From the NCBI GenBank assembly GCA_943357915.1, contig CALRGQ010000001.1, positions 72,816 to 135,948 on the forward strand: a stretch of 63,133 bases of DNA. The letters are read 5' to 3'. The notes beneath the pieces are model-generated. The model was not told where the DNA came from. It saw nothing but the letters and a program-made list of their open reading frames with translations, and did no database searches. The DNA comes from Candidatus Peribacteria bacterium (GTDB lineage: Bacteria; Patescibacteriota; Gracilibacteria; Peribacterales; Peribacteraceae). Below, piece after piece: positions 18,706 through 40,269 of the stretch (positions are counted from its first letter, which is position 1; every line of letters starts with the position of its first letter). The translations under genes and the position numbers were made by a program.

Positions 18706-18721
18706 TGTGCGTGTGCTTTTT

Positions 18722-18973
18722 TTAGCGTAGTTCATACGAAATCGTCACATTCGACACGATTTCCTGCTCTCCGGCGGGAATTGGCATACTTTCCTGCGCG
18801 ACTGCATTACCCATATCGTAGTTTGCCTTCGTCAGCATTGGCGTCGGATAACCGTAGGCGCCATCTTCACTGAAGGCGGTCATGCGGCCGAGTGACATGC
18901 CAAGATTTTTTGCGAGCACTTCTGCTTTCGCTTTCGCCTTCTCGATTGCGATCTCACGAGCCTGCGCCTTCAT
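18722..18973 (-). pseudogene. 3' remnant of a SIMPL-domain gene
   Basis: 83 aa, differing at 4 positions from the C-terminus of 22856-23611, with many synonymous changes. Confidence 0.9.
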
Positions 18974-18979
18974 AAACTT

Positions 18980-19303
18980 CTATTTTTTGTCGAGTGCAAA
19001 CGGCTCAAACATGAGCACGTACGACTTCCCCACACTCTTCGGGCAGTGTTCCACTCCCTTTGGTACGATGCCAATTTCCCCTGCTTTCAGCACGAGATCA
19101 GACTCACCTTTCATCTGGATCGTGATTTCACCTTCGTGCACGAGGAAGAGTTCATCCTCGTTCTCATGCACGTGCCAATGATACTCACCCTCGAAGAGTG
19201 CGATGCGGACGACCTGATCGTTCACACGAGCGAGTTCGACCGGCGACCATGATTGCGTGATTTGTTGGATTGCATCGGCGATGGAAATGGGTTGGGGGAG
19301 CAT
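18980..19303 (-). CDS. Cupin domain protein
   Basis: GEYHWHVHENEDELFLVHEG and VPKGVEHCP cupin motifs. Confidence 0.92.
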   Translation of the reverse strand: MLPQPISIADAIQQITQSWSPVELARVNDQVVRIALFEGEYHWHVHENEDELFLVHEGEITIQMKGESDLVLKAGEIGIVPKGVEHCPKSVGKSYVLMFEPFALDKK

Positions 19304-19309
19304 AGGGGT

Positions 19310-20008
19310 TTAGAGAATGATACTGGGATGTTCTCTGTCGAGAATATCGATTCGCGCTTCTGCTTTGCAATGCTCTTTCACTAGTAGAGAAAGTTCTTCC
19401 AGAATTTCCTTCAAACGATCTTTCGTGAGAGGTGGGAAACCTTCCACGACGATAATCGCACGCTTCGTTTCAGCTGTGATCTTCGCTCGATCACCTTCTC
19501 GCCAATTGAGCTTCCTGCAAATTACGCCTGCATCGTCTTTGTACACGAGTTCTCCTACTGCTGGAGGATCCTCTACTGTTTCCCCGAGTGGAACAAAATG
19601 TTCGGTGCCCGTTGCGTATGCAAGCCGCACGTCGCCGGTGCACAGATCGGTATCTTCCGCACCGACACACACGACGTACTTCAGCGAGATGACATTGTAG
19701 AGGTTGACCAGTGGATTGATACTCGGGAGCTTCCCACCCTTCAGTACACGCTTGAGGAGAGCTTGCACTGAGGGCGGGAATTTATTCGGATTGTTTCCAA
19801 AGCTCCTGTGGACGGTCTGTATGGCGACGAGGTTCGGGTGATCTTTGAAGGAGTCAATGTTGTGCGATGTATGTACATGCTCTTCTGTTGCCTGCAGCAG
19901 CGCTGCCGATTCTCCGTGATCGACATTACTCATACCCGTTGCGACGATAACGCCAATGGCGATGTCCGGGTGGGCGGCGAGGACGGTGGGGTGGAGGAGG
20001 AAGTGCAT
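19310..20008 (-). CDS. B3/4 domain protein (PheRS editing-like)
   Basis: PSVQALLKRV, LPSINPLVNLYNVISL, GELVYKD and CRKLNWREGD motifs. Confidence 0.9.
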   Translation of the reverse strand: MHFLLHPTVLAAHPDIAIGVIVATGMSNVDHGESAALLQATEEHVHTSHNIDSFKDHPNLVAIQTVHRSFGNNPNKFPPSVQALLKRVLKGGKLPSINPLVNLYNVISLKYVVCVGAEDTDLCTGDVRLAYATGTEHFVPLGETVEDPPAVGELVYKDDAGVICRKLNWREGDRAKITAETKRAIIVVEGFPPLTKDRLKEILEELSLLVKEHCKAEARIDILDREHPSIIL

Positions 20009-20169: not shown

Positions 20170-20703
20170 TCATGTACTGAAAATATCGTTGGCAATCGTG
20201 ACGAGTTCCTCACGATCAACTTCGTCGAAAGCCTCAGTGAATTCGCTGTCTACATCGAGCACAGCGATCAGGTTCTTTTGCCGGTCAAATATCGGTACAA
20301 CGATCTCAGACTGAGACCTGCTATCACATGCGATATGACCGGGGAATTTTTGCACGCTGGGGACGATGATTGGCTTTTGTGAACGGGCACACGCCCCACA
20401 AACGCCACGATTGAAGTGGATACGCAGGCAGCCGAGAGTTCCCTGGTAGGGCCCTACGACGAGTTCGTCGCCTTTCGTTGGGTCTACTTGATAGAATCCC
20501 GTCCAGAAGAAATAAGGCAGGTGATGAGCGAGGATGCCAGTCACTGTCGCCATACGTGCAATGACATCGCTTTCTCCCTCCAGGACTGCGGAAGCAGTCT
20601 TTCGGGCTTGAAGGTAGATCGCCCGCTTTTCTGTTGCTGAAAGCAAGCGATGAGTCTGTTCATGAGGAAGCTGGTCGTTGATGGTGCTTGTAAGAGAAGA
20701 CAT
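20170..20703 (-). CDS. msrC: GAF-domain free methionine-(R)-sulfoxide reductase
   Basis: WTGFY, GPYQGTLGC, GVCG, FPGHIACD, SEIVVP and VLDVDS motifs, the fRMsr/YebR signature. Confidence 0.85.
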   Translation of the reverse strand: MSSLTSTINDQLPHEQTHRLLSATEKRAIYLQARKTASAVLEGESDVIARMATVTGILAHHLPYFFWTGFYQVDPTKGDELVVGPYQGTLGCLRIHFNRGVCGACARSQKPIIVPSVQKFPGHIACDSRSQSEIVVPIFDRQKNLIAVLDVDSEFTEAFDEVDREELVTIANDIFST

Positions 20704-22107: not shown

Positions 22108-22362
22108 TCAGTTTTTCCTGCGGAGCACATTTGCTATTGCGCTGCCTGCACAGTGGACTTGCTCCAAGCATTCGAGAAAAACCGCATCAGGTATCTCCTG
22201 TTCTCCTTGTTCAAGAGAGCGCTTTGCTCCTTGCCGCGCATCGATCCAAATTTTTCTTAGTTCGTCTTTTGTAAGGTTGGGACCTTCGAGAGCGAGTTCT
22301 TCGACAGACACAAGTTCCAACTTATCTGCTAATGGTTGCGTTGAGGGTTGAGTAGTAGCCAT
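22108..22362 (-). CDS. Small hypothetical protein (84 aa) with CxxxxxC
   Basis: MATTQPSTQP...ECLEQVHCAGS...RRKN. First ATG after the attenuator; the longer ORF start overlaps the leader and terminator. Confidence 0.7.
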   Translation of the reverse strand: MATTQPSTQPLADKLELVSVEELALEGPNLTKDELRKIWIDARQGAKRSLEQGEQEIPDAVFLECLEQVHCAGSAIANVLRRKN

Positions 22363-22391
22363 GGTAATGATTGGAATGAAAAGGGAATAAG

Positions 22392-22424
22392 AAAAAACAC
22401 CTCCGCGTGTAGTCCCGCGGGGTG
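22392..22424 (-). terminator. Intrinsic terminator of leader B attenuator
   Basis: CACC-CCGCG, loop, CGCGG-A-GGTG, then T6. Segment 22412-22421 is perfectly complementary to leader segment 22459-22468. Confidence 0.8.
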
Positions 22425-22444
22425 AGTCATGAGTCTTATTTCTC

Positions 22445-22540
22445 TCATGCCTTCGTCTCCCGCGGGACACGCATGCACATACACATCATCGCCATAACGC
22501 GATTTGTGATGAGGCCGGAGGAGAAGGAGTGGTGGTTCAT
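22445..22540 (-). CDS. Met/Cys-rich leader peptide B, MNHHSFSSGLITNRVMAMMCMCMRVPRETKA
   Basis: 31 aa ORF with an MAMMCMCM control region directly before the antiterminator strand. Confidence 0.8.
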   Translation of the reverse strand: MNHHSFSSGLITNRVMAMMCMCMRVPRETKA

Positions 22541-22567
22541 GGGATCAGAATATTTTCATTGATACGG

Positions 22568-22592
22568 AAAAGTGCCCCGCGATCTGCGCGAG
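22568..22592 (-). terminator. Attenuator hairpin of Met leader A2
   Basis: CTCGCG-CAGAT-CGCGGG then GCACTTTT. Homologous to 18451-18476; alternative pairing with 22630-22636. Confidence 0.6.
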
Positions 22593-22612
22593 TGGTGATG
22601 GTGTGCGATTCT

Positions 22613-22687
22613 TTACGCAGCAACCAACCCTCGCGCTAGGCGCATCATCATGCTCATCATCATGGTGGTGGGTCGGAGAGTTGTCAT
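22613..22687 (-). CDS. Met-rich leader peptide A2, MTTLRPTTMMMSMMMRLARGLVAA
   Basis: 24 aa ORF with 6 of 7 consecutive codons ATG. Paralog of A1; preceded by TCGACA-17-TTAAAT-8 nt. Confidence 0.85.
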   Translation of the reverse strand: MTTLRPTTMMMSMMMRLARGLVAA

Positions 22688-22855
22688 GTGCGCATATTTA
22701 AATGCCATATCGTATTTTTGTCGAGAGTTTTGGAGCATTGTTTCTATACATGGCTTATGGATGCGGGAAAATAGTGGTGGTTGTTTACTTGACACGTCAC
22801 CTTTCCACAAAAAAGACGCGCACATTGCACGTCTCTATTCTTTCTGCAGTACTAT

Positions 22856-23611
22856 TTAGCGTAGTTCATACGAAATCGTCACATTCGACACGATTTCCTG
22901 CTCTCCGGCTGGGATAGGCATGCTTTCCTGTGCCACCGCTCCTCCCATATCGTAATTCGCCTTTGTCATCATTGGCGTCGGATAAGCGTAGGCGCCATCT
23001 TCACTGAAGGCAGTCATACGGCCGAGTGACATACCGAGATTCTTCGCAAGAACCGTTGCTTTTGCCTTCGCTTTCTCGATAGCGATCTCACGAGCCTGTG
23101 CCTTCATGGCATCCGGATTATCGACGGTGAATGTAATGCCACCAGCCTGATTTGCGCCGGCGGTCGTAGCGACGGTGAGGACATCACCGACTTTATCAAG
23201 ATCACGGACTTTGACCCGCAGTGTCTGTGTTGCCTGAAATCCACGTGGGATCTGCCCGCCGGTTGTGTAGTCGTACTCGGGGCTCAGGTAGAAGCTTTCG
23301 GTTGCAATGTCTTTCTCTTCAATGCCGAGTTCTTTCACTGCTACCAAAATATTTGTCATATTTTTCTTGATGACGTCGGTTGCAGCTTTTGCGTTGGGCT
23401 GTCTGCCGGTCGTGACGCCGAAGCTCATGTACGCGATGTCCGGCGGTGTCGAAATTTTTCCTTCTGCACTGACTGAAATCACCGGGGGATTTGTGAGTGG
23501 GCCTTTAACTTCCATCTGTTTGCCGGCGAGAAAGAACGCACCGCCGATGATGACGGCAGTGATCAGAGCCCAGACGGGCGGATGCAGGGTGGTGGTGTTT
23601 GAATCAGACAT
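22856..23611 (-). CDS. SIMPL domain (DUF541/YggE-like) protein
   Basis: N-terminal TM segment, ISVSAEG...PD.A, LGIEEKDIAT, GANQ and PGEQ-like C-terminal motif. Confidence 0.92.
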   Translation of the reverse strand: MSDSNTTTLHPPVWALITAVIIGGAFFLAGKQMEVKGPLTNPPVISVSAEGKISTPPDIAYMSFGVTTGRQPNAKAATDVIKKNMTNILVAVKELGIEEKDIATESFYLSPEYDYTTGGQIPRGFQATQTLRVKVRDLDKVGDVLTVATTAGANQAGGITFTVDNPDAMKAQAREIAIEKAKAKATVLAKNLGMSLGRMTAFSEDGAYAYPTPMMTKANYDMGGAVAQESMPIPAGEQEIVSNVTISYELR

Positions 23612-39677: not shown

Positions 39678-39721
39678 TGCCTCACAGTATACGCAAAACA
39701 GGCCGATCGCAGCCTGCTTTA

Positions 39722-40097
39722 TGTCCTGCTCTCCGTACGCCGGATTCTGTTCGTCCCGCTTGCGCGAGAGAGATGATCATCTATCTAGTCCGTAAATTGC
39801 TCTACGGATCCAGCGGAGGGGCAACCGGTCTCACGGAACCATGAGAGATTCCAATCGCCCAATTCCTCCTTGCAGCACCTAGAGTTTGCCAAGTCCCTTG
39901 CGGGGTCCTCCGTTCAAGCCGGAGGCGTTTCACATGCCCTTGCGGGCTCGTCTCTGTGGCACTGGTCCTCACGTGTCTTTACCTGATATGTGACACGTGG
40001 GTGGGCGTTACCCACTAAGCGTTCCATTGCTGTCCGGACGTTCCTCCTCGACTTCGCTTTGCAGCTACGCCGAGGCGATCATCGAAAGAGCAGGACA
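39722..40097 (-). ncRNA. rnpB: RNase P RNA
   Basis: GAGGAACGTCCGG (CR I), AGTGCCACAGA (CR II), GTGAAAC (CR III), AACAGAATCCGGCGTA (CR V), and terminal P1 TGTCCTGCTCT/AGAGCAGGACA. Confidence 0.95.
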
Positions 40098-40194: not shown

Positions 40195-40269
40195 GCCGCC
40201 TTAGCTCAGCGGTAGAGCAACGCACTTGTAATGCGTGGGTCGAGAGTTCAATTCTCTCAGGCGGCTCCA
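40195..40269 (+). tRNA. tRNA-Thr(TGT)
   Basis: Acceptor GCCGCCT/AGGCGGC, D arm GCTC/GAGC, anticodon arm ACGCA-CTTGTAA-TGCGT, T arm GAGAG-TTCAATT-CTCTC, encoded CCA. Confidence 0.97.

Follow-up and report, generated by a model that had tools for sequence, protein, structure and literature searches.

The region of a Candidatus Peribacteria genome upstream of an operon for a flavoprotein and a free methionine-(R)-sulfoxide reductase (fRMsr) contains two short, methionine-rich open reading frames (ORFs), leaders A2 and B. The question raised by this locus is whether the two leaders act one after the other as ribosome-dependent attenuators, and which signal they read. The locus is part of a stretch of 63,133 nucleotides (nt) from contig CALRGQ010000001.1 (GenBank assembly GCA_943357915.1), hereafter called the window. 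An initial annotation of this DNA had proposed a methionine (Met) leader, A2, followed in tandem by an unrelated Met/cysteine (Cys) leader, B. Our analysis favors one transcript that carries two serial ribosome-mediated transcription attenuators read by the translation of Met codons, with a probability of roughly three in four. The locus thus probably holds a Met-sensing double attenuator. A2, B, the downstream operon and a paralogous leader, A1, are all encoded on the minus strand (Table 1).

Anatomy of the two leader units

Leader A2 contains 6 Met codons within 7 (22663–22643). A 7-bp antiterminator duplex of −19.8 kcal/mol begins 5 nt past the last AUG. The −10 element of a promoter-like site ends only about 8–9 nt ahead of the A2 ATG (22687), and the leader mRNA is therefore expected to be leaderless or nearly so. 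A pattern search with ATGATGATGNNNATGATGATG gave a single match in the window, compared with 0.01 expected.

The ATG of leader B is located exactly 27 nt past the A2 T-tract (gap 22567–22541), the distance given in the initial annotation, whose coordinates and sequences for A2 and B proved correct. The Met/Cys run of B (22495–22472; M16, M18, M19, C20, M21, C22, and M23) has 5 Met and 2 Cys codons within 8. The basal helix of the B antiterminator is formed by GTCCCGCGGG (22468–22459) and CCCGCGGGAC (22421–22412), an inverted repeat of 10 nt with 100% complementarity that had already been pointed out. CCCGCGGGAC also contributes the 5' arm of the B terminator and a portion of its loop. The apical hairpin consists of CATGAG (22449–22444) and CTCATG (22433–22428), and its 5' arm contains the TGA stop codon of B, in agreement with the earlier remark that a ribosome terminating at this stop would interfere with the antiterminator. 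All three stop codons are in use in the host genome and TGA ends 254 of 858 long ORFs, so the TGA of B is a genuine stop. The B terminator was predicted to be strong with a T6 tract. It has a 9-bp stem with one bulge, T6 and a stability of −15.7 kcal/mol, and it was also flagged, hairpin and T-tract together, by the terminator scan (22420–22403).

Both leaders contain MM[SC]M[MC]MR[LV][AP]R, and they are also connected by a direct repeat of 30 nt with 70% identity that consists mostly of ATG. B is a distinct and conserved leader type that shares the core motif of A-type leaders, which makes its description as "unrelated" doubtful.

The 3' arm and tail of the A2 terminator, CGCGGGGCAC (22581–22572), show 90% complementarity to the 5' strand of the B antiterminator, GUGUCCCGCG (22470–22461). 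Judged from the sequences, this complementarity could couple both units or may merely reflect shared GCGGG/CCCGC motifs. Cross-talk by this pairing was dropped as a candidate, being missing from the minimum free energy (MFE) structure of the 358-nt leader and shrinking to GCGGG/CCCGC in the other tandem genomes.

Table 1. Features of the A2-B locus and of the paralogous A1 locus, with positions in the window; aa, amino acids.
Feature	Position	Strand	Sequence or description
SIMPL-family gene upstream of A2	ends 22856	(-)	followed by a terminator-like hairpin, 22831-22819 (terminator scan)
Promoter-like site for the A2-B transcript	22696..22724	(-)	TCGACA, 16-17 nt spacer, TTTAAA/TTAAAT; 9/12 match
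Leader A2 ORF	22687-22613	(-)	MTTLRPTTMMMSMMMRLARGLVAA, then stop codon
A2 antiterminator, 5' strand	22636-22630	(-)	GCGCGAG (codons A-R-G); partner CTCGCGC, 22592-22586
A2 terminator	22592-22568	(-)	CTCGCG/CAGAT/CGCGGG (22592-22576), GCAC, TTTT (22571-22568)
Leader B ORF	22540-22445	(-)	MNHHSFSSGLITNRVMAMMCMCMRVPRETKA, then stop codon TGA (22447-22445)
B antiterminator, long hairpin	22412..22468	(-)	basal helix and apical hairpin; -27.8 kcal/mol
B intrinsic terminator	22424-22392	(-)	CACCCCGCG / GGACTACA / CGCGGAGGTG (22424-22398), TTTTTT (22397-22392)
First downstream ORF, 84 aa	22108..22362	(-)	no family; self match only
FAD/NAD(P)-binding oxidoreductase-like protein, 446 aa	20733..22073	(-)	283 distant relatives, E<=0.001
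GAF-domain fRMsr	20170..20703	(-)	GAF_2; 29 nt past the flavoprotein gene
Duplicated 3' fragment of SIMPL (DUF541) gene	18721..18973	(-)	253 nt, 87% identical to 22855-23107
Leader A1 ORF	18568-18497	(-)	MSTLRTSGMMMDMMRLARGSLIA, then stop; antiterminator strand 18520-18514
A1 terminator	18476-18453	(-)	CTCGCG/CAGAT/CGCGAG (18476-18460), AAC, TTTT; -7.5 kcal/mol
Divergent SAM hydroxide adenosyltransferase-like gene (DUF62 fold) behind A1, 312 aa	17468..18406	(-)	PF20257, E 0.0023

Antiterminator pairing and covariation

The pairing was examined in 32 distinct leader elements, in which the 24–45 nt past the last Met codon were compared with the terminator 5' arm and its immediate upstream neighbors. 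Compensatory variants were read by eye from the sequences. Because MAFFT alignments put the 3' arms and the apical hairpin out of register, pairing was scored sequence by sequence. Cognate pairing is found in all 32 elements, with a mean of −20.5 kcal/mol versus −15.7 kcal/mol for non-cognate pairs and −11.3 ± 3.7 kcal/mol for shuffled leaders. The duplex starts 0–12 nt past the last AUG, and an in-frame stop follows the run at +15 to +42 nt in 32/32 elements, most commonly at +27.

The A-type core, GCGAGG with CCUCGC, barely varies. In divergent members, both strands change together (CGUGG/CCACG, CAAGGG/CCCUUG, GCGAGAG/CUCUCGC, CGAGGCGG/CCGCCUCG, and UGGGAUU/AAUCCCG). The encoded residues shift with the RNA partner, from RG to QG, RE, SW or PR as read by eye, and the "RG" motif is therefore an RNA constraint rather than a peptide constraint. 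Among the eight B-type elements, the basal helix CCCGCGGG/CCCGCGGG is invariant (8/8 pairs in 8/8 sequences). The apical hairpin differs between genera with its pairing kept (CAUGAG/CUCAUG, CUUGAG/CUCAAG, GUGCAU/AUGCAC, and GUGCGUGA/UCACGCAC). The B-type antiterminators range from −26.8 to −32.9 kcal/mol (8/8) and the terminators from −7.9 to −17.0 kcal/mol, the former being more stable by 10–20 kcal/mol. Antiterminator and terminator are mutually exclusive, as in an attenuator, and this is backed by both conservation and covariation.

Ribosome position and the proposed switch

In a downstream-only model, the RNA was folded from the ribosome leading edge (+13 nt from the A-site codon) to the 3' end of the terminator. 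The predicted probability of the A2 terminator is 0–0.02 with the A site on codons 1–14, which include five of the six Met codons of the run, and 0.86–0.92 from codon 15, the last Met. For A1, too, the change comes at the last Met, and for B it comes at codon 22, with Met16, Met18, Met19, Cys20 and Met21 in the readthrough zone. Overall, the switch is located within −2 to +1 codons of the last Met in 24/32 elements. Without a ribosome, the MFE structures of A2 and B hold the antiterminator. Protector-like pairing is seen in A1 only, and no consistent trp-style protector (1:2) helix enforcing termination without translation was found in A2 or B. An untranslated leader should therefore read through.

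From the anatomy, conservation, covariation and gene associations, we infer the following course of stalling, termination and combined logic. Transcription would start a few bases ahead of the A2 AUG and yield a leaderless or nearly leaderless mRNA in a host that makes no use of Shine-Dalgarno sites. The RNA 3' of each Met run, still inside the ORF, would pair with the terminator 5' arm, through GCGCGAG in A2 and through GUCCCGCGGG and the apical hairpin in B. When Met-tRNA is scarce, the ribosome would stall in the run, leave the antiterminator intact and allow the RNA polymerase to read through. When Met-tRNA is plentiful, the ribosome would reach the stop 8–9 codons further on and melt or cover the antiterminator strand, the terminator would fold, and transcription would end near 22568 (A2) or 22392 (B). 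Readthrough into the operon of the 84-aa ORF, the flavoprotein and fRMsr would require both units to be open, and the output should therefore approximate the product of two Met-dependent probabilities, with a low leak and a steeper response. Lowered initiation under Met starvation would push toward readthrough as well. The AND-like gate proposed in the initial annotation is a reasonable inference, although it is weakened by the poor terminator of A2. The "Met or Cys low" reading of its second step is not supported as worded. Cys codons occur in 4/8 B leaders and are absent from the other four (G483, G486, G364, and G316), so Met is the conserved signal. Sensing of Cys by B, with Cys20 in the modeled readthrough zone, is a tentative option for this genome.

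Points against a double gate and the role of A2

Several observations weigh against a Met-sensing double attenuator. The A2 terminator is weak, with a 6-bp stem, −7.9 kcal/mol and a T4 tract displaced 4 nt from the stem, and it was not flagged by the terminator scan of the window. The hairpin and T-tract described in the initial annotation are thus present, but the first gate may be leaky because of this weakness. The A-type core and the B basal helix are nearly invariant, so covariation rests on the divergent members and the apical helix. A simple stalling model is further complicated by the effect of Met starvation on initiation, which it limits as well. In the downstream-only model, 5/32 elements are predicted to fold the terminator wherever the ribosome stands, and another 3 switch outside the expected range. 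The outcome of this model hinges on the exclusion of cross-ribosome pairs and on the +13 leading edge. A contrary model, in which the whole leader was folded around a 28-nt footprint and RNA on both sides was free to pair across the ribosome, places no terminator in the MFE structure of A2 or B with the ribosome at the stop codon, and places the B terminator in the MFE structure with the A site on Met18–Met23. Footprint-constrained folding, suggested earlier as a check, thus agrees with a switch near the last Met in one model and contradicts it in the other. Helices that enclose a ribosome, as the contrary model implies, are unlikely, and the equilibrium folding used in both models leaves out kinetics. 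About half of the genes homologous to the 312-aa gene behind A1 have no leader within 500–700 nt, and the first two genes behind A2-B (the 84-aa ORF and the flavoprotein gene) have no assigned function.

The weakness of the A2 hairpin also bears on an alternative in which only B gates the operon and A2 is a decaying or modulatory copy from the duplication that made A1, leaving no true double gate. A2 and A1 are products of a segmental duplication. A copy of the SIMPL gene 3' end lies ahead of A1, and the A-type leader cassette therefore moved by segmental duplication. In the other genomes with a tandem arrangement, the A-type terminators are much stronger than that of A2 (e.g., CCCUCGCAGAAAUGCGGGGGUUUUUAUU). 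However, the same weak terminator subtype is the sole attenuator ahead of the A1-controlled gene, and it recurs at L081 and L082, in another genus, with intact leader ORFs, promoters and antiterminators. A2 itself retains the ORF, the Met run, the 7-bp antiterminator and a modeled switch at the last Met, and the A-then-B order is kept in most genomes with a B-type element. We therefore regard loss of the A2 gate as unlikely, though it is the strongest competitor of the double attenuator.

Conservation of the tandem order and a third upstream ORF

A search for homologs of leader B recovered eight B-type elements. In 6/8 B-bearing genomes, B is preceded at a distance of under 250 nt by an A-type leader that has a terminator of its own. 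These are the host genome, G001 (same genus), G419, G483, G486 and G364, and the A-then-B order spans at least three genera (g1, g51, and g46). Together with the codon runs, antiterminators and stop positions, this order supports two ribosome-dependent attenuators in series. Of the remaining two genomes, G461 carries B alone, preceded by a TTGACA-16-TATGAT promoter of its own, and G316 has a short B with no A-type leader within the 330 nt examined. The two internal B leaders scored, in the window and in G364, have a promoter score of 7/12 only. Lacking a promoter, B is therefore part of the A transcript. Behind the tandem cassette are a DUF62-like gene in G001 and G364, a homocysteine S-methyltransferase gene in G486, a 457-aa homolog of the flavoprotein in G483, and an uncharacterized 353-aa protein in G419.

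A third conserved upstream ORF (uORF), M[KR]L[FY]ILYLRTDCMLMR, was identified behind the A-type unit in eight other loci (L026, L028, L031, L032, L034, L035, L074, and L075), where it is located between the terminator of that unit and the main gene. In 4 or 5 of the 8 loci, the stop of this uORF overlaps the main-gene start or lies very near it: the two overlap as ATGA in L026, L028, L074 and L075, and in L031 the uORF extends about 12 nt past the start of the gene. The uORF stops short of the called start in L032, L034 and L035. The genes behind it encode DUF62-like proteins or homocysteine S-methyltransferases. This uORF has no terminator of its own and shares with B-type leaders a C-M-x-M-R ending; it may act on translation. 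A search for this type (LFILYLRTDCMLMR) in the host genome found none. Because both A+B and A+third-uORF loci occur, two-tier control behind A-type leaders is common in the lineage.

The leader family in related genomes

Relatives that carry homologs of the 312-aa protein are labeled Candidatus Peribacteria or Peregrinibacteria. Such homologs are present in 24 of 401 sampled genomes of the class. A Met-dense small ORF lies ≤500 nt upstream in 13 of these loci, one being false (part of a longer protein) and one doubtful, which leaves 11 clear leaders and 1 doubtful leader among the 24 genomes. For loci from genomes named Peribacteria or Peregrinibacteria (n = 31), upstream sequence was available for 30. 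Sixteen of them were flagged (1 false and 1 doubtful), giving 14 clear leaders and 1 doubtful leader of 30.

Independently of the downstream gene, the Met-run pattern ATGATGNNNATGATGATG is found in 101/200 family genomes versus 11/200 for the reversed control (table count). Short leader ORFs of the form MMxMMM-(R/P/T/S)-x-x-R-G account for 16 of the first 30 pattern loci, and a terminator hairpin with a U-tract follows 15 of the 16, none being detected for L083. The remaining 14 are Met-rich stretches in longer ORFs or are ambiguous. The matches at L059, L060, L065 and L080 are inside longer proteins with repeated MMxMM (e.g., MMQMMRMMM), and they are probably Met-rich proteins and not leaders. 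A stricter pattern, a Met run plus GCGAGG, matches 22/401 class genomes, with 20/64 in the family and 1/336 outside it, while the control gives no match. More divergent leaders, whose helices differ in sequence, precede homologs in other families of the class (L012, L017, L020, and L021). Promoter scores are 9–11/12 for 24 of 31 leaders scored. The end of the −10 box is located 7–12 nt ahead of the leader ATG in 18/31 leaders and 22–27 nt ahead in 6 more. The weak A2 terminator subtype accompanies A1, L081 and L082, each with an intact leader.

Conservation within the family could also be read as that of a nascent arrest peptide (MMxMMM-R-x-x-R-G; MxMRxPRE in B) that senses S-adenosylmethionine (SAM) or free methionine in the exit tunnel instead of Met-tRNA. 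TnaC, which senses tryptophan, is a precedent for such a peptide. The residues past the Met run are conserved across genera, and the regulon is centered on SAM and Met, as an arrest peptide would have it. Nevertheless, the conserved codons coincide exactly with the antiterminator strand, the amino acids change wherever the RNA partner changes, as noted above, and the N-terminal parts are not conserved, peptide N-termini and lengths being variable across leaders. Runs of 5–7 codons for one amino acid are, moreover, a hallmark of tRNA-supply sensing. An arrest peptide is accordingly given little credence here.

Still less probable is a switch that works through RNA alone and binds a ligand or protein. 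The AUG repeats would then serve as an RNA motif, and the presence of ORFs would be fortuitous. The highly conserved blocks AUGAUG..., GCGAGG and CCCGCGGG would fit such an element. The variable codon within the Met run, however, takes at least 20 different triplets among the rows listed, the start codons follow a −10 box at the spacings given above in 24 of the 31 leaders scored, every one of the 32 elements has its in-frame stop past the run, and no conserved structure resembling a ligand pocket is seen besides the two alternative hairpins. No Rfam family matches even at E≤10. On 22250–22950, only two chance-level matches were obtained at this threshold, mir-36_2 and sR43. T-box, SAM riboswitch and Rfam amino-acid leader models gave no match, either in the window or on 22250–22950 at E≤10.

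Leader A1 and the host genome

The host genome is 1.39 Mb in size with a G+C content of 48% and is estimated to be 97% complete. A scan of the whole genome retrieved 10 Met/Cys-dense frames, three of which are A1, A2 and B. Six others have no leader motif, and a Met-rich frame on contig C1 (61925–62008) was rejected as a leader since it is off-frame inside a 1053-aa gene. A1 has 5 Met codons within 6.

A Shine-Dalgarno motif is present at −18 to −4 in 4% of the 858 long ORFs, compared with 5.7% in a control window. The region upstream of the genes is G-poor, with a TAnnnT signal at positions −12, −11 and −7, suggesting that many mRNAs of this genome are leaderless. Translation of the leaders in the absence of such a motif is therefore plausible. 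Four DNA sequencing runs gave contigs of the probable source sample and cross-mapping from the paralog A1, with no independent strain over the leaders. A look-up of RNA sequencing runs returned none that covers the locus.

Genes behind the leaders

The 446-aa protein is an oxidoreductase-like flavoprotein, and its relatives contain a Pyr_redox_2 domain. An initial contig scan gave no relative of it, it was not found in 40 relatives, and a word-indexed search returned only itself. With protein P0001 and the 446-aa protein as queries, searches of NCBIfam and of PDB sequences gave either nothing or chance-level matches. The homolog in G483 (L096; 457 aa) shares 22% identity with it (E 4e-19) and is located directly behind a tandem A+B cassette. 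The fRMsr protein matches solved fRMsr structures with E values of 1e-25 to 1e-32, including 3mmh (E 4.5e-32), 1vhm (YebR) and 1f5m, and its gene is probably co-transcribed with the flavoprotein gene. Family and relative searches with the 84-aa ORF found nothing beyond itself.

The AlphaFold model of the 312-aa protein, built with 19 relatives, has a predicted local distance difference test (pLDDT) score of 88. It has 28 PDB matches at E≤0.001. The 17 matches listed all belong to the DUF62 family (including MJ1651 SAM hydrolase, PH0463, SalL chlorinase, and fluorinase), with template modeling (TM) scores of 0.5–0.58, and gaps in the ranks are further chains of the same entries. The first downstream genes of the 16 leader-bearing loci from the unbiased pattern sample were sorted by BLAST clustering. 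They encode a DUF62-like protein in 6/16 loci, plus L064 by its N-terminal motif, and a homocysteine S-methyltransferase in 4/16. Three of the latter were scanned (L071, L075, and L081) and all match PF02574. The other first genes encode 63-aa uncharacterized proteins (two), a methyltransferase-like protein (one) and an uncharacterized protein (one), and L074 is ambiguous. Altogether, PF02574 homocysteine S-methyltransferases are found behind leaders at five loci (L071, L075, L081, L097, and L099). Known members of the DUF62 and homocysteine S-methyltransferase families release or make methionine. The leader-controlled families, together with fRMsr in the operon, share methionine salvage as their theme.

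That the leaders are functional Met/Cys-rich peptides, either metal-binding or precursors of ribosomally synthesized and post-translationally modified peptides (RiPPs), modified by the downstream flavoprotein is the least credible explanation: their Met-, Cys- and His-rich sequences and a flavin oxidoreductase without an assigned role would suit it, but enzymes with no relationship to one another are found behind the leaders (homocysteine methyltransferase, the DUF62 family, and others), a terminator overlapping an alternative helix follows each leader, the N-termini and lengths of the peptides vary freely, and Cys is not conserved.

The host genome has no match to PF00438, PF02773 or PF01941 (SAM synthetase) or to PF02574. 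The assembly being 97% complete, these families are described as "not found", not as "absent". The apparent lack of SAM synthetase next to a Met-leader-controlled SAM hydrolase-like gene hints that SAM is imported and usable as a methionine source in the host cell. With no detectable SAM synthetase, the regulon suggests on-demand production of methionine by symbiont-like cells from host-derived SAM, S-methyl donors and oxidized methionine. We lean slightly toward a broader view in which Peribacteria possess a portable, leaderless, Met-sensing leader-peptide attenuator cassette, the first that is specific for Met codons, which often has two units and defines a methionine-scavenging regulon. The two-unit forms are A followed by B, or A followed by the third uORF overlapping the gene start, and the regulon comprises DUF62 SAM hydrolase-like enzymes, homocysteine S-methyltransferase, fRMsr and the flavoprotein. 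If true, a physiological role would also follow for the DUF62 "SAM hydroxide adenosyltransferases", an enigmatic family. The conserved cis-element links three enzyme families and one uncharacterized flavoprotein to methionine acquisition, and it offers a function-independent finder of methionine-acquisition genes in uncultured organisms.

Comparison with known leader-peptide systems

Classical leader-peptide attenuators of Proteobacteria include trpL, hisL, thrL, leuL, pheL and ilvL. Like them, the leaders studied here have a short ORF with a codon run and an intrinsic terminator ahead of structural genes, an antiterminator that overlaps the terminator 5' arm, and downstream genes that supply the sensed amino acid. 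In contrast to them, the sensed codon is AUG, and the leader mRNA is expected to have little or no sequence ahead of this ORF and lacks a Shine-Dalgarno site. The host belongs to the Candidate Phyla Radiation (CPR) and has few biosynthetic genes, and the targets are salvage enzymes rather than a biosynthetic pathway. Compared with trpL and hisL, there is no consistent region-1 protector, the untranslated default would be readthrough, two units are chained and no Rfam model matches. Leader-peptide attenuation is a textbook mechanism, but no example that reads Met codons was found. Known control of methionine genes involves MetJ/MetR, S-box and other SAM riboswitches, and T-boxes. To our knowledge, gene regulation in CPR bacteria has hardly been explored. 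Tandem riboswitches and tandem T-boxes place two sensing and termination units in series and give a sharper or two-input response. The sensor here differs in that it would be a translating ribosome, not an aptamer or a tRNA-binding RNA.

Passages of one paper report a His leader peptide in Bacilli and give leader peptides only for amino acids other than Met (PMC2965389). For Actinobacteria, Trp and Cys leaders were described, and passages of that paper mention that methionine operons have no RNA structures ahead of them (PMC1262725). Peribacteria are described as lacking most amino-acid synthesis (PMC4736985). Full-text literature searches, which cover few subscription papers and no supplements, turned up neither a leader-peptide attenuator for methionine nor any leader peptide from Peribacteria or CPR bacteria. 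The A2- and B-type leaders are thus apparently an undescribed family of Met-sensing switches on methionine-salvage genes.

Tandem leader-peptide attenuators for sulfur amino acids had been considered unusual. No published Met example was found. Salmonella mgtCBR is a precedent for tandem leader ORFs, its tandem attenuators (mgtM and mgtP) being called a singular example in the abstract (PMC3641672). According to that source, the mgtCBR leader also has two short ORFs, each tied to its own alternative stem-loops and controlling transcription into the coding region, and mgtP senses charged tRNA via a codon run, like the Met leaders here (PMC3641672). The two systems differ in that mgtM and mgtP are described there as sensing ATP and proline in an independent and additive manner, whereas Met runs are present in both units here (PMC3641672). 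Compared with mgtCBR as thus described, each unit here has its own U-tract terminator, and the cassette is conserved across genera and moves between genes. The two-unit cassette would be a natural case of serial ribosome-based gates that is directly testable in vitro.

Other features of the window

Past the fRMsr gene, after a 161-nt gap, a B3/B4-domain protein (19310–20008) and a small cupin (18980–19303) are encoded on the same strand. At the gathering threshold, Rfam matched only two RNAs in the whole window, a bacterial RNase P class A RNA at 39721–40094 and a tRNA gene at 40195–40266.

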